Of a DNA stretch of 64,000 nt, positions 4,376 to 55,004 are shown in pieces. The position numbers and the translations under genes are program-made. Positions within the stretch are counted from its first letter, which is position 1, and the number at the start of each line of letters is the position of its first letter. Source of the DNA: Rhabdothermincola salaria (GTDB taxonomy: Bacteria; Actinomycetota; Acidimicrobiia; Acidimicrobiales; Acidimicrobilacustridaceae); assembly GCF_021246445.1 (NCBI RefSeq), contig NZ_JAJQXW010000002.1, forward strand, positions 744,001-808,000, read 5' to 3'. A model generated the notes under the pieces. That model made no database searches. It was not told the DNA's origin and saw only the letters and a list, made by a program, of their open reading frames with translations.

Positions 4376-5658
4376 GACGTCACCGCCTCGTCGGTCGGCA
4401 CATCGACGTCGGCGCCGGTGCCCATGACCTCGGCCACCGAGGCGGCCAGGATGTCGAGGCCCTCGTTGAGCTCGGCCTCGGTGATGGTGAGCGCCGGCAT
4501 GGCCTTGACCACCTCGCTCTCGGGCCCGGACGTCTCGAGCAGCAGGTGCCGCTCGAAGCAGGCCTTCACCACGGCGGAGGCCTTGTCGGGGTCCTCGAAC
4601 ACGAGGCCCTGGGCGAAGCCGCGGCCCCGGGTGTCGGTGCCCGGTGTGGTGCTCACGATGCTGAGCATGGCGCCCTCGATGAGCTTGGTCTTGGCCTCGA
4701 CCTCGGTGGTGAGGACGTCGTCGGACCAGTACTTGCGCAGGCCGGCGGCGCCGGTGATGAAGGCCGGGTTGTGGCCTCGGAACGTGCCGTTGTGCTCGCC
4801 GGGCTCCCAGACGTCGAGCTCGGGGCGCAGGAGGGTGAGCGCCATGGGGAAGCCGTAGCCGCTGATCGACTTCGACAAGGTGACGATGTCGGGGGTGATG
4901 CCGGCCGGCTCGAAGCTGAAGAAGGGGCCGGTGCGCCCGCAGCCCATCTGGATGTCGTCGATGATCAACAAGATGTCGTTGTCGCGGCACAGCTCGCTGA
5001 GGCGACGCAGCCACTCGTAGCTGGCCACGTTGATGCCACCCTCGCCCTGCACCGTCTCGACGATGACCGCGGCGGGGAGGTCGAGGCCCGAGCCGGAGTC
5101 GGCCAGCAGGCTCTCGAAGTAGGTGAGGCCGCTGCCCTCTTCCATGTAGTTGCAGAACGGCATCGGCGTGGTGTGGGCCAGGGGGATGCCGGCGCCGCCG
5201 CGCTTCATCGAGTTGCCGGTGACGGCGAGCGAGCCGAGGGTCATGCCGTGGAAGGCGTTGGTGAAGCTGACGATCTGCTCGCGGCCCTTCACCTTGCGGG
5301 CCAGCTTGAGGGCGGCCTCCACGGCGTTGGTGCCGGTGGGGCCGGGGAACTGCACCTTGTAGTCGAGCCCGCGAGGGGTCAGGACGACCTCGTCGAACGT
5401 GCGCAGGAAGTCGGCCTTGGCCTTGGTGAACATGTCGAGGCTGTGCACGACCCCGTCACCGGCCAGGTAGTCCATCAGGGCCTTCTTGAGGTCCGGGTCG
5501 TTGTGGCCGTAGTTGAGTGCGCCCGCACCGGCGAAGAAGTCGATGTAGCGCTCCCCGTCGGTGTTCCACATGACCGAGCCCACGGCCCGGTCGAAGGTGG
5601 TGGGCCAGGATCGGCAGTAGCTGCGGACCTCGGACTCGTGCTCCTCGATGACGTTCAT
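4372..5658 (-). CDS. ectB: Diaminobutyrate-2-oxoglutarate transaminase
   Basis: [35 protein letters not shown], class III PLP lysine (LSKS); RBS AAGGAGG. Confidence 0.97.
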
Positions 5659-47583: not shown

Positions 47584-49227
47584 ATGACCGTCGCCGCGTC
47601 CAACGACGAGACGGCCGCAGGTGGGACCATCACCGACCTCGACCGCCTCGGCTTCGACAACCGCTTCGTGCGCGAGCTCCCCGCCGACCCGGACCCCGAG
47701 AACCGGCGGCGCCAGGTGTACGGCGCGGCCTACTCCCTGGTCACCCCCACGCCCGTCGCCGCGCCCCACACCCTGGTCTGGTCCCCCGAGGTCGCCGCCC
47801 AGCTCGGGCTGGCGCCCGAGCTGTGCGAGTCCCAGGACTTCGCCGAGGTGTTCTCCGGCAACCGGGTGCCGGCAGGGGCGGAGCCCTTCGCCCAGGCCTA
47901 CGCCGGGCACCAGTTCGGCAGCTGGGCCGGTCAGCTCGGTGACGGTCGGGCCATCGGTCTCGGTGAGGTGGTCGACATCAGCGGTCGTCACCAGACCCTG
48001 CAGCTGAAGGGTGCCGGGCCCACCCCGTACTCGCGCACGGCCGACGGCCGGGCCGTGCTGCGCTCGTCGCTGCGCGAGTACGTGTGCAGCGAGGCCATGG
48101 CCCACCTCGGCATCCCCACCACCCGAGCGCTCTCCCTCGTCGTCACGGGTGAGACGGTGGTGCGCGACATGCTCTACGACGGGAACCCCCGCCCGGAGCC
48201 GGGCGCGGTGGTCTGCCGGGTGGCGCCGTCGTTCGCCCGGTTCGGCACGTTCCAGCTGGCGGCGTCGCGCAACGAGATCGATCTGCTGCGCCAGCTGGTC
48301 GAGTTCACGGTGCGCAACGACTTCCCCGAGCTCGCCGAGGACTGGGGCGCCACCCCGGAGCAGTACGTGCCGGCGTTGCTGGCCGAGGTGTGCGACCGCA
48401 CCGCGTCGTTGGTCGTCGACTGGATGCGGGTCGGCTTCGTCCACGGCGTGCTGAACACCGACAACATGTCGATCCTGGGGTTGACCATCGACTACGGCCC
48501 TTACGGCTGGCTCGAGGACTTCGACCCCGGCTGGACCCCCAACACCACCGATGCCGGCATGCGCCGGTACCGGTTCGGGGCCCAGCCCCAGGTGGTGCAC
48601 TGGAACCTGCTGCAGCTGGCCAACGCCCTGGCCAACCTGGTCGACGACCCCGGGTCGCTCCAGGATGCCATCGACGGCTACGCCCGGTCCTACAACGATC
48701 GCTTCCGCACCATGACCGTGGCTCGCCTCGGGTGGGGTGAGCCGACCGACGGCGACGACGCCCTGCTCGACGGCCTGTGGTCGGTGCTGGTCAGTGCCGA
48801 GATCGATCAGGTCCGCTTCCACCGCGACCTGGCCGATGTGCCCGTCGACCCCGCCGTCACCGACGACGAGCTCCTCGCGCCGCTCGCCGCCGCCTGGTAC
48901 CAACCCGAGCAGCTGACCGGTGACGTCCGCTCGGCGCTGGTCACCTGGCTCCGCGACTGGGCGGGTCGCGCCGCGGCGAGCGGCCTCGGGGAGGGGGAGC
49001 GGCGGGCCGCCATGGACCGGCTCAACCCCCTCTACGTGCCTCGCAACTACCTGGCCCAGCAGGCGATCGATGCCGCCGAGCAGGGCGACCTGGCCGAGCT
49101 GCACGAGCTGCTCGAGGTGCTGCGCCGCCCCTACGACGACCAGCCCGGCAAGGAGCGCTTCGCCGAGCGTCGGCCGGACTGGGCCCGGACCCGGGTCGGG
49201 TGCTCCCAGCTCTCCTGCAGCAGCTGA
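47584..49227 (+). CDS. selO: Protein adenylyltransferase SelO/YdiU
   Basis: YAGHQFG, GQLGDGRA, LKGAGPTPYSR, GFVHGVLNTDN, IDYGPYG, C-terminal CSQLSCSS. Confidence 0.95.
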   Translation: MTVAASNDETAAGGTITDLDRLGFDNRFVRELPADPDPENRRRQVYGAAYSLVTPTPVAAPHTLVWSPEVAAQLGLAPELCESQDFAEVFSGNRVPAGAEPFAQAYAGHQFGSWAGQLGDGRAIGLGEVVDISGRHQTLQLKGAGPTPYSRTADGRAVLRSSLREYVCSEAMAHLGIPTTRALSLVVTGETVVRDMLYDGNPRPEPGAVVCRVAPSFARFGTFQLAASRNEIDLLRQLVEFTVRNDFPELAEDWGATPEQYVPALLAEVCDRTASLVVDWMRVGFVHGVLNTDNMSILGLTIDYGPYGWLEDFDPGWTPNTTDAGMRRYRFGAQPQVVHWNLLQLANALANLVDDPGSLQDAIDGYARSYNDRFRTMTVARLGWGEPTDGDDALLDGLWSVLVSAEIDQVRFHRDLADVPVDPAVTDDELLAPLAAAWYQPEQLTGDVRSALVTWLRDWAGRAAASGLGEGERRAAMDRLNPLYVPRNYLAQQAIDAAEQGDLAELHELLEVLRRPYDDQPGKERFAERRPDWARTRVGCSQLSCSS

Positions 49228-49808: not shown

Positions 49809-50513
49809 GTGCCCCTCGCCGACCCCTTGCGCCATGCCGTGGATCGAGTGGCTTCGGCAGCGGTCCAGGGTGGGTGGCGCGTCGCCCGTCGGTTCGGCAA
49901 GACCAAGGCCGGCTCCCCCGGGGCGCGGCGTTTCGGCGCGTTCGGCGACGGCAGCTCGTTGGCGTTCCCGCCCGGCGAGGTGATCGGCCCGCAGGCCATC
50001 CGCATCGGGGCCCGATGCGCCATCGGGGCCGAGGTCACGTTGGCGGCCGGCTTCCCGGACCAGGTCTTCCCTCCGGTCTGCGACCCGGTCATCACGTTGG
50101 GGGACCGGGTGACGATCGGTCGGGGCGGCTTCGTGGTCGGGTTGGCGTCGATCCACCTCGAGGACGACGTGACCATCGCGCCCAACGTCTACATCACCGA
50201 CCACAACCACACCTACACCGACCTGTGGCTGCCCATCGGCGAGCAGTGGCCCGAGCAGGCCGATGTCCGCATCGGCGCCGGCAGCTGGCTGGGCACCGGT
50301 GTCATCGTGCTGCCCGGGGCGCAGATCGGTCGCCACGTCACCGTGGCCGGGGGAGCCGTCGTGCGCGGGGTGGTCCCCGACCACTGCGTGGTCGCCGGAG
50401 CCCCGGCCCGGGTGGTGCGGCGCTGGACCGAGGCGGACGGGTGGGTGCCCCCGCTCGCCCGAGAGGTCGAGGTGCCGCCGGGCTGGCCGGTGGGCGTGCC
50501 GCCCGAGCGCTGA
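49809..50513 (+). CDS. Hexapeptide-repeat (LbH) acyltransferase
   Basis: YITDHNH, VRIGAGSWLG, AGGAVV, AGAPARV. Confidence 0.88.
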   Translation: MPLADPLRHAVDRVASAAVQGGWRVARRFGKTKAGSPGARRFGAFGDGSSLAFPPGEVIGPQAIRIGARCAIGAEVTLAAGFPDQVFPPVCDPVITLGDRVTIGRGGFVVGLASIHLEDDVTIAPNVYITDHNHTYTDLWLPIGEQWPEQADVRIGAGSWLGTGVIVLPGAQIGRHVTVAGGAVVRGVVPDHCVVAGAPARVVRRWTEADGWVPPLAREVEVPPGWPVGVPPER

Positions 50514-50552: not shown

Positions 50553-50596
50553 ACCCAGATGAGAGTGTTCTCATCTGGGTCTCATCACCCCTTCCC
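50553..50596. promoter_or_regulatory. 12-bp inverted repeat plus 11-bp-phased TCTCAT direct repeats (OmpR/MprA-type boxes), site 1
   Basis: ACCCAGATGAGA-GTGT-TCTCATCTGGGT; TCTCAT at 50569 and 50580; CAGGAT 7 nt before ATG 50620. Confidence 0.65.
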
Positions 50597-50619
50597 ACCC
50601 GGCCGCCAGGATCGCCCAG

Positions 50620-50952
50620 ATGTCCCGTCTCGCTGCCGTCGCCGTCGCGTTGGTCGTGGCCCTCGTGGTCGGCGCGCTCACCATCGTCGCCGGACGGGCC
50701 CTCGTGGGGGATCCGGCCCCGGCCGTGGAGCCCATCCACCTGAGCACCACGACCACGGCCCCGCCTCCCCCCGAGGCTGAGGCCGCGCCGCCGCCCACCG
50801 AGCCACCTGCGCCCGTGGCGCCGCCGGCCCCGGCCCCCGCTCCCGCCCCTGCGCCGCTACCGCTGCCGGCCTTCCCCAGCGGCGACGACGACGACTTCGA
50901 CGACGACTTCGACGACGACTTCGACGACGACGGGGATGACGGCGATGACTGA
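50620..50952 (+). CDS. Small exported or membrane-anchored Pro-rich protein with poly-Asp/Phe tail
   Basis: N-terminal hydrophobic helix, Pro/Ala stalk, tail DDDDFDDDFDDDFDDDGDDGDD; stop overlaps kinase start. Confidence 0.75.
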   Translation: MSRLAAVAVALVVALVVGALTIVAGRALVGDPAPAVEPIHLSTTTTAPPPPEAEAAPPPTEPPAPVAPPAPAPAPAPAPLPLPAFPSGDDDDFDDDFDDDFDDDGDDGDD

Positions 50953-52468
50953 GTGGTGGCGCGCTCAGGTGCGCGCCTTTCGGGGCATCCGCGGACGGGT
51001 GCTCATCTGGTTCGTGGGCCTCTTCGCCGTGCTGCTGGTCGTCGGTCTCGTCACCGTTCGCCAGGTCCTGCTGGTCCGTCTCGACGACGAGGTCGAGACG
51101 GCGCTGACCCAGGAGGTCGAGGAGCTCCGTCTGCTGTCCCCGGGGGTGAACCCGACGACCGGGGAACCGTTCGGCGACGACGTCACCTCGCTGTTCCAGG
51201 TGTTCGTGGAGCGCAACATCCCGGGCCAGGGCGAGATCCTGTTCGGCCTCACCGACGGCCAGGTGGTCGCCGCCAACCCCCTCACCTTGGCCCGCAGCGT
51301 CGCCGATGCCGAGCTCTTGTCCACCTGGGAGACGGTGCCCCGGCCCACGTGGGGGGAGACCGCGACCGACCAGGGGACGATGCGCTGGTTGGCCGTGCCC
51401 GTCGTGACGGGTGAGCAGGACCGCGGCGTGTTCGCCGTGGCCCAACTGATCGGGCCCCAGCGCGACGACATCAACCAGGAGATCCAGGTCCTGGCGGTGG
51501 TGTTGTTCATCGTCTTGGTGCTGGCCTCCGTCCTGGGGTGGTTGGCCGCCGGCCGCGTGCTCGAACCCCTGCGTCGGGTGACGTCCACGGCGAGGGAGAT
51601 CTCCGACGAAGACCTCTCGGCGCGCATCCCCGTCGAGAGCGACGACGAGGTGGGCGAGCTCACCCGCACGTTCAACGACATGCTCGAACGTCTCGACGAG
51701 GCCTTCTCGGGGCAGCGGACCTTCTTCAACGACCTCGGCCACGAGCTGCGCACCCCCATCACCATCGTGCGGGGCCATCTCGAGCTGCTCCCGGACGATC
51801 CTGCCGAACGTGCCGACGTGGTCGCCGTGTGCCTCGACGAGCTCGACCGCATGGCGCGCTACGTGGCCGACCTCGTGCTGTTGGCGAAGTCCCAACGTCC
51901 CGACTTCCTCGAGGTCCGGCCCGTCGACATCGCCGAGCTGACCGACGGCCTCGAAGCCCGGGCCGTGGCCATCGAACCCGACCGGCGGTGGCGCATCGCC
52001 CGGGTGGCTCCGGTCGTCGTCGACGCCGACCCCGACCGCCTCACCCAGGCCATGGTGAACCTCCTGGCCAACGCCGCTCAGCACACGGGCCCGGGCGGGG
52101 AGATCCGCTTCGGCTCCGAGGTGGGCGACGGAGAGGTCCACCTCTTCGTGACCGACGACGGCCCCGGAGTGGCGCCCGAGGACCGTCGGACCATCTTCGA
52201 GCGCTTCGGCCGAGGATCGGACACCGCCACGCACCGACGCGAGGGGTCGGGCCTCGGCCTGGCGATCGTGGCGGCCATCGCCGAGGCCCACCGTGGCGAG
52301 GTGCGCCTCGACAGCCCCCCGGGCCAAGGCGCCACCTTCAGCATCGTCGTGCCCTTCGAGTACGGGGCCGACGACGACGTCGGACCCCAGGTGGTCACGA
52401 CGAACAGCGTCGTCCTCGACACCCCCCACCAGGTCGACGACGAGACCGAGGAGATCCCCCTGCCATGA
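50945..52468 (+). CDS. HAMP sensor histidine kinase
   Basis: Two TM helices, HAMP, HELRTP, NLLANA, DDGPG, GSGLGL. Confidence 0.95.
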   Translation: MTEWWRAQVRAFRGIRGRVLIWFVGLFAVLLVVGLVTVRQVLLVRLDDEVETALTQEVEELRLLSPGVNPTTGEPFGDDVTSLFQVFVERNIPGQGEILFGLTDGQVVAANPLTLARSVADAELLSTWETVPRPTWGETATDQGTMRWLAVPVVTGEQDRGVFAVAQLIGPQRDDINQEIQVLAVVLFIVLVLASVLGWLAAGRVLEPLRRVTSTAREISDEDLSARIPVESDDEVGELTRTFNDMLERLDEAFSGQRTFFNDLGHELRTPITIVRGHLELLPDDPAERADVVAVCLDELDRMARYVADLVLLAKSQRPDFLEVRPVDIAELTDGLEARAVAIEPDRRWRIARVAPVVVDADPDRLTQAMVNLLANAAQHTGPGGEIRFGSEVGDGEVHLFVTDDGPGVAPEDRRTIFERFGRGSDTATHRREGSGLGLAIVAAIAEAHRGEVRLDSPPGQGATFSIVVPFEYGADDDVGPQVVTTNSVVLDTPHQVDDETEEIPLP

Positions 52469-53136
52469 CCCGCATACTCATCGCCGAGGACGAGGAGCGC
52501 ATCACCACCTTCCTCGAGCGCGGTCTGAAGACCAACGGCTACTCGACCATGGCCGTCCACACCGGGTTCGAAGCGGTCGAGATGGCTCGTGACGGCGAGT
52601 TCGAGCTCCTGATCCTCGACCTCGGCCTGCCCGGGATCGACGGTCAGCAGGTGCTGCGGGCCATGCGGGCCCGGGGCGAGACCATGCCCGTCATCGTCCT
52701 CACCGCGCGCGACGCGGTGGAGGACACCGTCGCCGGCTTCGAGGGCGGAGCCGACGACTACGTGACCAAGCCGTTCCGGTTCGAGGAGCTCCTGGCCCGC
52801 ATCCGGGTCCGCCTCCGTGACGAGACCACGGCCGAGACCACCGTGCTGCGCGTGGGGGACGTGGCGCTCGACATGCTCACCCGGCGGGCCCACGTGGGCG
52901 ACCGTGTGGTCGAGCTCACCGCCCGGGAGTACGCGCTGGCCGAGACGTTCCTGCGCCATCCCGACCAGGTCCTGAGCCGGGAACAGCTCCTCAGCCACGT
53001 GTGGGGGTACGACTTCGCCCCGGAATCGAACGTGGTGGACGTCTACGTGCGCTACCTGCGTCGCAAGCTCGGCGACGGGGTCATCGAGACGGTCAGGGGC
53101 ATGGGCTATCGGCTCTCGCCGGATCATCGCGCCTGA
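52465..53136 (+). CDS. OmpR-family response regulator
   Basis: AEDE, LDLGLP, TKPF, winged helix SNVVDVYVRYLRRK, ETVRGMGY; ATGA overlap. Confidence 0.96.
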   Translation: MTRILIAEDEERITTFLERGLKTNGYSTMAVHTGFEAVEMARDGEFELLILDLGLPGIDGQQVLRAMRARGETMPVIVLTARDAVEDTVAGFEGGADDYVTKPFRFEELLARIRVRLRDETTAETTVLRVGDVALDMLTRRAHVGDRVVELTAREYALAETFLRHPDQVLSREQLLSHVWGYDFAPESNVVDVYVRYLRRKLGDGVIETVRGMGYRLSPDHRA

Positions 53137-53155
53137 TCCCGAGCGGGGCCCGACC

Positions 53156-53197
53156 CACGATGAGAGCCTTCTCATCGTGTCCCAATGAAGCTCTCAG
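53156..53197. promoter_or_regulatory. 10-bp inverted repeat plus phased boxes, site 2
   Basis: CACGATGAGA-GCCT-TCTCATCGTG; TCTCAT 53170, CCCAAT 53181, TCTCAG 53192 (11-bp period). Confidence 0.6.
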
Positions 53198-54453
53198 CGC
53201 TCGCCGCTCGACTGGGGGTCGTGGAGAACAGTGCCCCCCGGCTGCCCGCGGCCGACACCCTGCTCGGTCCCGGCGCCGACGAGATGGTGGCCGTCGCCGT
53301 CGAGGCGGGCGGCGGCCGCCTCCTCTCGTTGGCCCGCAACCAGGTCCTGCACCGTCCCGGGCGCGCCCTGACCGTTCGCTTCTCGGCGGAGGTGGCCTGG
53401 GCCGGTGACGTGCGCACCCGCGAGACCGTCGTGGCCATGGCCGGAGTCGACGGCCCACCCGAGGGGACCCTCGTGCTGGAGGCGGGTGATGAACGAGTCG
53501 GGCTGTTCCGCTACCCCCACGATCCGCTGCTTCCCGGTCTGGTGGCGGCCACCTCGCCCGACGCGGTCGCCGAGCGCATCGGCCACCGGGTGGCCGAGGG
53601 CGGCCTCACCGTGGTGGCCTACCGCCCGGCCCGACGAGCCGTCGTGCGAGTGGACCTGGCCGGCGGCGGGCAGCGCTACCTGAAGGTGGTGCCCCCCTCG
53701 GAGGCACCGGCCCTGGTCGCCCGCCTCGACCGGCTGGCCGGGGTGGTCCCCGCCCCCCGAGTGCTGTCCCGACACGTCGCCGAGGGGTTGGTGGAGCTCG
53801 AGGCCATCCCTGGTCGCACGCTGCGCGATGCCCTCCGGGCCGACCGAGTGGGTCGGGTCACCGCCACCGGCCCGGCCCGTCCTCCCGAGCCGGGCCGTGT
53901 GCTCGAGGTGCTCGAGCGACTCGACACCGTCGACGTCACCGATCTGGCCCCTCACTGGACGGTGCCCGAGATGGCGCGCGGCCTCGGCGCCATGCTGAGC
54001 GCCGTGTTGCCCACCGAGGCAGAACGCCTGGCCGCGCTCGGCCACGAGCTGGGCCGGGAGGTGCCTCAACGCCAGGTCGCCGTCCACGGAGATCTGCACC
54101 CGGCCCAGTTCCTCGTGCAGCGCAGCACCATCACCGGCGTGCTCGACCTCGACGACCTGGGCCCCGGCGCTCGGGTGGACGACCTGGCGACCTTCCTCGG
54201 CCACGTCGTGGCCTTCGGCGTCGAGGGGGATCAGCCTCCGGCTCGACGCTACGCCGCCCGCCTGCTCCCGGTCTTCGGAGAGGCGACCGACCCCGACGAG
54301 CTGCGACGGCGCACCGCGGCGGTCCTCCTGGGCCTGGCCACCGGCCCGTACCGGGTCCAGCAACCCGACTGGCCCGAAGCGTGCCGTCGCCGCATCGCCC
54401 TGGCCGAGCGCTGGGCCCTCGGAGATGTGAGGAGTCTCAGAGAAGCCTCATGA
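53185..54453 (+). CDS. Aminoglycoside phosphotransferase (APH)-fold kinase; true start may be GTG 53221
   Basis: YLKVV lysine, VHGDLHPAQ catalytic loop, VLDLDD metal-binding motif; long N-terminal extension (FRYPHDPLLPGL). Confidence 0.85.
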   Translation: MKLSALAARLGVVENSAPRLPAADTLLGPGADEMVAVAVEAGGGRLLSLARNQVLHRPGRALTVRFSAEVAWAGDVRTRETVVAMAGVDGPPEGTLVLEAGDERVGLFRYPHDPLLPGLVAATSPDAVAERIGHRVAEGGLTVVAYRPARRAVVRVDLAGGGQRYLKVVPPSEAPALVARLDRLAGVVPAPRVLSRHVAEGLVELEAIPGRTLRDALRADRVGRVTATGPARPPEPGRVLEVLERLDTVDVTDLAPHWTVPEMARGLGAMLSAVLPTEAERLAALGHELGREVPQRQVAVHGDLHPAQFLVQRSTITGVLDLDDLGPGARVDDLATFLGHVVAFGVEGDQPPARRYAARLLPVFGEATDPDELRRRTAAVLLGLATGPYRVQQPDWPEACRRRIALAERWALGDVRSLREAS

Positions 54454-54462
54454 CGCCTTCAC
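54428..54462. promoter_or_regulatory. Phased boxes, site 3, upstream of the DS-repeat protein
   Basis: TGAG-GAGT-CTCA; TCTCAG 54435, CCTCAT 54446, CTTCAC 54457 (11-bp period). Confidence 0.55.
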
Positions 54463-54526
54463 CCCGGCGAGAGAGAACAGACACCAGAGGCGGACGAGCC
54501 GTCTCCCCCCACCACAGGAGCACCCC

Positions 54527-54952
54527 ATGAACAAGAACTGGAAGATCGCCATCGCCAGCGGTGCCGTCGCCGGACTCGCCATCGGCGGGTTCTCGGTCGC
54601 CTCGGCCGACGACGGGCCGAGCCTGCCCGACCCCGTCGTGGTCGACACCTCGCCCGTGTCGACCACGGCCACCACTCTCATGGGCGACGATGCCAGCAAC
54701 TCGGTGTCGGTCCCACCGGTCGAGGTGCCCGCTCCGGCGCCCGCGCCTGCCCCGCCCGCGCCTGCCCCGGCCCCGGCCCCGGCCCCGGCCCCGGCCCCCC
54801 AGTGGGACTCGTTCGACTCCCCGGCCCCGGGCCCCGCTCCGGCCCCCGCTCCGGCTCCCGCCCCGTCCTTCGACAGCTGGGACTCGCCCGATGTGGAGTC
54901 CTTCGACTCGCCGGCCTCGTTCGACTCGTTCGACTCGTTCGACTCCCCCTGA
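54527..54952 (+). CDS. Small secreted Pro/Ala-rich protein with eight [F/W]DS repeats
   Basis: RBS CAGGAG; Sec-type signal MNKNWKIAI...VASA; (PA)n stalk; WDSFDSP...SFDSWDSP...SFDSFDSFDSP. Confidence 0.82.
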   Translation: MNKNWKIAIASGAVAGLAIGGFSVASADDGPSLPDPVVVDTSPVSTTATTLMGDDASNSVSVPPVEVPAPAPAPAPPAPAPAPAPAPAPAPQWDSFDSPAPGPAPAPAPAPAPSFDSWDSPDVESFDSPASFDSFDSFDSP

Positions 54953-54971
54953 CCCATCCGCCCAGCCGCAG

Positions 54972-55004
54972 CCGGCCCGTCACCCGCCTCGGGTGGCGGG
55001 CCGG
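54972..55004. terminator. 15-bp hairpin between convergent genes
   Basis: CCGGCCCGTCACCCG-CCT-CGGGTGGCGGGCCGG. Confidence 0.65.

Follow-up and report, generated by a model that had tools for sequence, protein, structure and literature searches.

What does a kinase of the aminoglycoside phosphotransferase (APH) fold act on when its gene lies between a two-component regulatory pair and a small gene for a serine-rich protein with a signal-like N-terminus? The question is raised by a five-gene locus (positions 50553-55004) in a 64 000-nt stretch of the Rhabdothermincola salaria genome (contig NZ_JAJQXW010000002.1, positions 744 001-808 000), here called the window, whose numbering is used throughout. 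The locus is made of two modules: a sensor cassette, consisting of protein A, a sensor histidine kinase (HK) and a response regulator (RR), and a cargo pair, consisting of the APH-fold kinase and protein B. From gene pairing, sequence conservation and a predicted complex, we consider it probable, at roughly 70%, that the kinase acts on protein B and would phosphorylate it at many sites.

The kinase gene (53221-54453, + strand; the longest open reading frame, or ORF, runs from 53185) encodes a member of the Pfam APH family (PF01636; E 2.4e-13, 50.8 bits against a cut-off of 23.2) with an extra N-terminal domain. Protein B (54527-54952, + strand, 141 amino acids) has a W-K-I leader within a Gly/Ala-rich signal-like segment, a Pro/Ala stalk and Ser repeats of period 3. 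B lies within 500 nt downstream of the kinase in 64 of 78 and in 65 of 70 scorable loci (2 and 10 more, respectively, were dropped for short flanks), and directly downstream in 69 of the 87 loci that lie outside the seeds on which the model was trained; these and the following pairing figures are counts rather than tests, related genomes not being independent. Among 300 genomes drawn at random from the phylum, 19 contain the kinase family (E <1e-60) and 10 contain a distant sister family only. When the repeats are required, B is found near the kinase at 14 of the 19 loci of this draw, against none of the nine sister-family loci fetched. The original prediction was to be refuted if kinase homologues proved not to co-occur with such peptides; it survived this check. 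The reverse test, made on the best 30 of 42 matches to the B leader in the same draw, found a repeat-bearing B in 11 genomes, of which 10 also have the kinase; in the eleventh, a 640-contig assembly, B sits on a 540-bp contig. An independent composition filter passes a single one of 6061 ORFs of the R. salaria genome, which is B. In a neighbour survey of 160 loci plus L006, apart from the kinase, RR, HK and B clusters, no family occurs within 3.5 kb in more than 9 of the 161 loci, and B stays with the kinase even at three loci (L200, L216, L217) where neither a two-component pair nor a regulator box (see below) adjoins.

The hidden Markov model of the B N-terminus scores A-type N-termini up to 25 bits, so that counts made within 3.5 kb may be inflated; the pairing relies on the directly downstream counts and on those that require repeats. 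A downstream protein at L203, which passed the composition filter and failed the strict repeat test, was not counted, and 4 of 16 apparently B-less loci proved to be misses of the detector. Some loci have two B-like genes, or a B gene convergent with the kinase (L207, L208, L210, L211; L010, L014, L026, L048). A closed genome (G091) keeps only a truncated B-like gene (L292:7979-8233), whose repeat tail is short or shifted and which still has two boxes, both intact; neither the kinase nor an HK or RR adjacent to the gene was found in this genome, and the gene looks like a remnant. At L216, where B precedes the kinase and an extracytoplasmic-function sigma factor gene is divergent, a c-di-GMP-I-GGC riboswitch (RF03167, 63 bits; 4786-4866, + strand) lies directly before B. 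Such a riboswitch was present ahead of B in one of nine loci and in none of 20 further loci, and it was rejected as a general feature of B since it is confined to one locus.

What, then, is conserved in B? The C-terminal halves of 162 B-like proteins consist of 22% Ser, 19% Pro, 17% Ala and 15% Asp, with DSP and ASP as the commonest triplets and a median of 21 Ser/Thr. Pairs of Ser/Thr at i,i+3 number 1868, against 910 ± 19 in shuffled sequences, and residues other than Ser/Thr vary within the repeats. Lys and Arg are absent from the repeats of B. The original prediction had counted eight [F/W]DS units in B, which is exact, and had taken 'acidic-aromatic' repeats as the trait of such proteins; the latter did not stand, since at least three [FWY]DS occur in only 12 of 151 homologues, and the aromatic residues are incidental. 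At the other end of the protein, W5 is the sole invariant column across 109 N-termini, within a conserved W-[KR] signal-like segment; an invariant Trp is unusual for a plain signal peptide. No Pfam family scored above its cut-off in 62 members. The B of the window has no Cys, and a Cys past residue 30 is found in only 3 of 151 homologues.

The two partners were also modelled together (kinase residues 16-415 with full-length B, both supplied as alignments). The complex scored 0.65, against 0.01 for the best of three controls; the score mark is reached by 116 of 157 solved complexes and by 2 of 215 mismatched pairs, a calibration that is only rough with custom alignments. The runs share at least 26% of their contacts, and the pLDDT (predicted local confidence) of B is at least 35. 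Confident contacts join residues 2-8 and 18-25 of B to residues 25-43 and 94-114 of the kinase, with B 4-8 (N-W-K-I-A) placed along strand 96-100 and helix 33-41, all within the extra domain. That domain (residues ∼16-112) partly duplicates the N-lobe (hhalign probability 86, E 4.6e-6) and lies outside the range aligned by most fold matches (107-419); folded alone without an alignment, it reaches a pLDDT of 49. The kinase is thus predicted to bind the leader of B through its extra domain, and the predicted contact of W5 would account both for the invariant Trp and for the presence of a domain left uncovered by most fold matches.

As to the enzyme itself, the catalytic Lys, the HxD loop and the metal-binding Asp are intact, and K167, H301, D303, Q308 and D321 (residues counted from 53185) are invariant in 67 homologues. 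A loop of the N-lobe is a basic YRPxRR, and seven Arg outside the catalytic set are more than 80% conserved as basic residues. The kinase has no transmembrane or signal segment and is therefore cytoplasmic. Its model (pLDDT 92) is a two-lobed, protein-kinase-like fold matching many APH-fold structures with Z of 14-19, among them homoserine kinase (Z 17.5), the lanthipeptide kinase LxmK as the third match (9dk1_A; Z 17.4, rmsd, or root mean square deviation, 4.1 over 276 aligned residues) and the TvaE-leader complex (8jsu_D; Z 13.3). Since these structures match about equally, the substrate cannot be read from the fold. Among representatives at 50% identity, 715 relatives were collected at E up to 1e-10. 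Relatives of the kinase come from Actinomycetota and a few Chloroflexota, with Blastococcus, Kribbella, Phytohabitans and Ilumatobacter among the cultured, non-pathogenic carriers; a single-protein scan of genome contigs gave no relative, and the alignment-based scan did find relatives. Copies from Chloroflexia group with the kinase of the window on the tree. In an atlas, the only look-alikes of the kinase were APH clusters without a name, and those of B were 'hypothetical' clusters, all of them under 0.9.

Several observations weigh against phosphorylation and export of B. Twelve kinase loci have no B, most of them with intact motifs (one ends at a contig edge); they include L147, L157 and L212, which form a supported clade of B-less kinases in a quick tree (104 rows, 3 sister rows), and a closed genome (G526) with no convincing match to B. 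The period-3 spacing is not universal, the strict test being passed by 52 of 70 and 34 of 40 loci, and some members of the B family that fail it have a period of 4. The confident contacts of the model exclude both the repeats and the active site, and the fold of B is of low confidence. The catalytic loop has a Gln (the invariant Q308) where APH enzymes have Asn, the best sequence matches in the PDB are aminoglycoside kinases, and the top structural match is methylthioribose kinase (Z 18.7, rmsd 5.0, 291 aligned). The sister APH family sits with glycosyltransferases, ABC exporters and sulfotransferases, a context from which a glycan-related ancestry of the kinase is possible. Finally, we know of no precedent for the passage of a heavily phosphorylated chain through Sec. 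On the same tree, ten of the B-less kinases are represented and branch from within B-bearing ones, a pattern compatible with repeated loss of B. The sister clusters (L218-L226, L302) often have at least two APH genes, alongside an ABC exporter, glycosyltransferases resembling GT4 and GT28 and, in some cases, several sulfotransferases; at L302, such glycosyltransferase genes come after the HK-RR pair of the cassette.

Part of these observations could be read as showing a small-molecule kinase, with a sugar, glycan or antibiotic as substrate, that shares with B no more than its control within an envelope-stress regulon: both the sequence and the fold searches are led by APH, macrolide, maltose and methylthioribose kinases, B-less kinases persist, and the sister family keeps the company just described. 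But no transporter or pathway gene recurs near the kinase, which falls far below the NCBIfam cut-offs for antibiotic resistance (30.8 bits against 205 for APH(3'), model APH_3p; 26.1 against 325; 15.3 against 550), and no plasmid copy was found among 72 556 records. Moreover, a small-molecule substrate leaves unexplained the Ser period, the invariant Trp with its predicted docking and the parallel module described in the next paragraph. We regard this explanation as quite unlikely.

At five loci of another lineage, the same cassette and box face a cytoplasmic Hanks-type kinase (Pkinase E 1e-32 to 1e-38 in the four scanned), close relatives of which occur in 17 of 121 genomes of that order. Within 1.5 kb downstream of the Hanks kinase, 13 of 22 loci have an acidic Thr-repeat protein with a signal-like N-terminus and a Thr spacing of mostly 6, detected with a filter that passes 3 of 6426 ORFs of the R. 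salaria genome. Several of these proteins begin with M-W-x-K, and their N-termini align with those of B (hhalign probability 88); 4 of 10 reach 14 bits on the B model, as against none of 202 signal-like N-termini of the R. salaria genome. In 4 of 22 loci the box lies upstream of the Hanks kinase, and in 6 of 22 it lies between this gene and that of the repeat protein; in only two of the five loci linked to the cassette does the repeat gene adjoin the kinase. That a recognised protein-kinase fold fills the position of the APH-fold enzyme is the strongest indirect indication that the latter, too, may be a protein kinase. These loci (L309-L330, L293-L296, L299) make up a second, apparently undescribed module. 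A protein of ∼190 amino acids with a signal-like N-terminus and no Pfam match was seen beside both the APH and the Hanks modules (L082:2651-3256, L265, L296:10483-11058, L297:4091-4654).

How is the pair controlled? Three boxes on the + strand precede the transcription units. Box 1 (50558-50597, 40.1 bits) is a TGAGA-N4-TCTCA inverted repeat followed by CTCA repeats of 11-bp period, 62 nt before the ATG of A; box 2 (53159-53198, 37.4 bits) lies 62 nt before the likely kinase start; box 3 (54424-54463, 31.6 bits) overlaps the 3' end of the kinase gene, ahead of B. With a matrix trained on 191 sites of other loci, none of them from the window, these three rank first, second and third in the R. 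salaria genome, and ATGAGA-N3..6-TCTCAT occurs only twice in its 3.9 Mb, before A and before the kinase. The three related upstream motifs of the original prediction are thus far above chance and, together with the gene pairing, support its view of the locus as a conserved co-regulated unit. In related loci, TGAG-N5..9-CTCA is found upstream of the kinase in 105 of 169 and in none of the 169 kinase interiors, and upstream of B in 106 of 150; a box precedes B in 70 of 89 loci with a two-component pair as against 4 of 13 without. The matrix shows CTCA at 11-bp spacing, as in the direct repeats of OmpR-family targets, RR being the putative ligand here.

An in-frame start is found 61-63 nt past the box in 83 of 104 kinase loci, and the conserved A at +50 (88 of 104 loci) and T at +54 (93 of 104 loci) mark a -10-like element; the -10 of the window's own kinase is without the conserved A. 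This arrangement suggests activation at the -35 and leaderless transcripts. The kinase had been started at 53185; GTG 53221 is likelier, because it stands at +62 from its box, as does the ATG of A, and because the closest homologue (77% identical, 409 amino acids) starts at the matching position, so that the protein probably has 410 residues. Two further boxes were found in the R. salaria genome. One (29.3 bits; L341, G000:C4:218402-221757) is ahead of a gene for a 361-amino-acid protein with a hydrophobic N-terminus and no Pfam match, which is divergent from a GGDEF-domain gene; a second HK/RR paralogue lies at the same locus. The other, fifth among the box matches (25.2 bits; L342, G000:C1:1706573), precedes the gene of a CAP-domain protein, a possible member of the regulon.

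The three genes of the cassette are joined by overlapping stop and start codons, as first described: ATGACTGA between A and HK, ATGA between HK and RR. Protein A (50620-50952, + strand, 110 amino acids) has an N-terminal transmembrane segment, a P-x-I-x-L motif, a Pro/Ala stalk and an Asp-rich tail. HK (50945-52468, with an alternative start at 50936, + strand) has two transmembrane segments followed by HAMP, HisKA and HATPase_c, and RR (52465-53136, + strand, 223 amino acids) has Response_reg and Trans_reg_C domains (all Pfam), which places the pair in the OmpR family of two-component systems. Neither protein reaches a named NCBIfam family among the 25 shown for each, the best scores being 217 against a cut-off of 292.55 for HK and 212 against 279.2 for RR; the families compared include CusS/CopR, MtrAB, WalK and PhoR/PhoB. 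HK is present in 28 of the 300 drawn genomes (a tally that includes the unpublished G158), 17 of them without the APH kinase, and the two-component pair adjoins the kinase at only 10 of the 19 randomly drawn kinase loci. A-like genes lie directly upstream of HK at 51 of 96 HK loci, including loci with no APH kinase nearby; A is therefore part of the sensor cassette, and B goes with the kinase. Judging from its sequence, A looks membrane-anchored (mean best 19-residue hydropathy 2.45, versus 1.82 for B), and it is unlikely to be a substrate of the kinase because its tail has one Ser in the last 24 residues. The initial picture of A and B as twin exported repeat substrates is thus not supported, A going with HK and having a tail nearly devoid of Ser/Thr.

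Taken together, these elements suggest the following sequence of events. A, HK and RR would switch on their own synthesis and that of the kinase and B through the three boxes, which would overlap the promoter -35. In the cytoplasm, freshly synthesized B would be gripped at its W-K-I leader by the extra N-terminal domain of the kinase, and the kinase would then phosphorylate many Ser/Thr in the disordered repeat tail of B. The same leader would next act as a signal peptide, and B would leave the cell as a short polyanionic phosphoprotein. We lean slightly towards this export of modified B, on account of its signal-like features: a hydropathy of 1.82 and an AxA-like site in 145 of 156 proteins, both crude, loose measures used without a control. 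Equally crude patterns found no lipobox in the 156 proteins of the family and a twin Arg in 10. An alternative is that B stays inside or membrane-bound, as a phosphate sink or a kinase inhibitor, or that leader binding gates export, in a signalling loop that feeds back on HK. In its favour, the predicted interface spans both the n- and the h-region of the signal-like segment and, for as long as it lasts, would keep B from being exported; furthermore, a hydrophobic segment and a P-x-I-x-L-like motif are common to A, B and the Thr-repeat proteins (the motif is present in 39 of the 51 A and in 84 of the 156 B; hhalign probability 87 for B versus A), so that B could engage the sensor as A may. Yet the number of Ser/Thr in the C-half of B is far above what a switch needs, the AxA-like site is widespread, even if that pattern is a loose one, and B remains with the kinase at the three loci without an adjacent two-component pair or box. 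This alternative appears unlikely to us.

At this point we may only guess at what exported, phosphorylated B would do: binding of cations or building of a surface matrix is, at about even odds, our proposal. The riboswitch before one B gene and the boxes before the CAP-domain protein and the protein with a hydrophobic N-terminus are weak hints of a role at the surface. On the boldest reading, Actinobacteria might possess a two-gene machine for a secreted poly-phosphoserine protein, a counterpart of phosvitin and phosphophoryn, in which a signal peptide doubles as a leader of the type used by peptides that are made on the ribosome and modified after translation (RiPPs), and is read by a kinase domain built for it; the design might even have arisen twice under the same box, once with an APH-fold kinase and period-3 Ser and once with a Hanks kinase and period-6 Thr. 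For this general proposal the scales seem to us evenly balanced.

The remaining features of the locus can be given briefly. All five ORFs lie on the + strand, as the original prediction had it, with a G+C content at third codon positions of 0.87-0.92, in the range of real genes, and neither A nor B matches a Pfam family above its cut-off. The 15-bp hairpin said to close the locus is present at 54972-55004 (3-nt loop, no U-tract, -39.1 kcal/mol over 45 nt), between B and a convergent cytochrome P450 gene, and is a probable terminator. The flanking genes encode, according to Pfam, a SelO-family adenylyltransferase (47584-49227), a hexapeptide-repeat acyltransferase (49809-50513) and the P450 (55032-56288); none of these three recurs with the module.

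If correct, this reading would explain what is done by a family of 'aminoglycoside phosphotransferase' genes with probably no part in resistance, and would reveal both a way in which an exported bacterial protein can be phosphorylated stably at multiple sites and the use of a signal peptide as a leader for enzyme recognition. A portable leader-kinase pair could serve to make phosphorylated repeat proteins for materials work, and a binding motif and targets would be supplied for an unnamed, widespread actinobacterial two-component system.

How does the locus compare with known systems? Literature searches, which covered few subscription journals, found no published description of the module. 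On gene order only, the sensor cassette is probably the counterpart of SCO2142/SCO2143 of Streptomyces coelicolor, a match drawn from the S. coelicolor gene order together with the literature. Three loci (L278, L281, L282) carry this HK and RR, with no kinase, B or palindrome within their 1.5-kb flanks; at L278 and L282 the order is rhomboid, a 93-amino-acid Lrp ligand-binding protein, an A-like protein, HK, RR and an SLC13 transporter. SCO2142/2143 is listed in a review table as an unnamed HK-RR pair of the OmpR family (PMC9739842), SCO2140 is described as an AsnC protein devoid of a DNA-binding domain (PMC3784963), and a preprint using DNA affinity purification sequencing (DAP-seq) gives sites for SCO2143 (10.64898/2026.06.06.730586). 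An assignment of the cassette to RapA1/A2 (SCO5403/5404) was dropped, since that pair has the order RR-HK according to the table of PMC9739842, whereas the window pair is HK-RR.

With aminoglycoside and macrolide phosphotransferases, maltokinase and methylthioribose kinase (PF01636), the kinase shares the common fold, the catalytic K, HGD and D-x-D, but it differs from these APH and other protein-kinase-like enzymes by an identity of only ∼20%, the extra N-terminal domain, the YRPxRR loop, scores below the named cut-offs shown and its fixed pairing with B. Closer in organization are the class V lanthipeptide kinases (LanK: CaoK, LxmK) and the APH-like proteins of thioamitide clusters (TvaE-leader complex, PDB 8jsu), where an APH-fold enzyme also stands beside a Ser/Thr-rich ribosomal peptide; according to PMC9486802, the APH-like CaoK phosphorylates Ser/Thr iteratively and was modelled to bind its leader. 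A class V lanthipeptide-like peptide or another cleaved RiPP could accordingly be made from B, with phosphoserine as an intermediate of dehydration: of the 67 kinase homologues, 31 match the LxmK model weakly (best E 2.9e-8, well short of the cut-off), LxmK is among the top three fold matches, and docking of a leader type is predicted. The absences speak otherwise. The kinase scores 14.8 bits on the LanK model NF038156, against a cut-off of 315; the R. salaria genome (97.8% complete) has no lyase of the HopA1 family (LanY type, PF17914, for which 1 of 14 control genomes was positive), and the loci share no recurrent family of lyases, decarboxylases, proteases or exporters. With LanK cut-off, lyase and Cys core all failing, a class V lanthipeptide cluster was rejected, and the wider idea of a cleaved RiPP seems to us very improbable. 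For a LanC-like cyclase, neither this genome nor the control genomes gave a match. Compared with class V LanK systems, then, the module of the window is without LanY lyase, Cys, tailoring or protease genes; the leader of B resembles a signal peptide, with docking predicted on an extra, duplicated domain, and the core is a low-complexity tail of period 3.

The likeness to the substrates of the eukaryotic Fam20C (dentin phosphophoryn, phosvitin, casein) and to the serine-rich repeat proteins of streptococci would lie in a Ser-rich chain of low complexity that leaves the cell and bears modifications at many positions. Fam20C works in the lumen of the secretory pathway and has no relationship to the kinase of the window. 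Serine-rich repeat proteins receive their modifications in the cytoplasm and are exported afterwards; they differ in being glycosylated, very large and dependent on accessory Sec, and none of those genes recurs in the kinase loci. Set among these systems, the module is real, conserved and apparently undescribed, probably a variant of the leader-directed peptide kinases aimed at a signal-bearing repeat protein.

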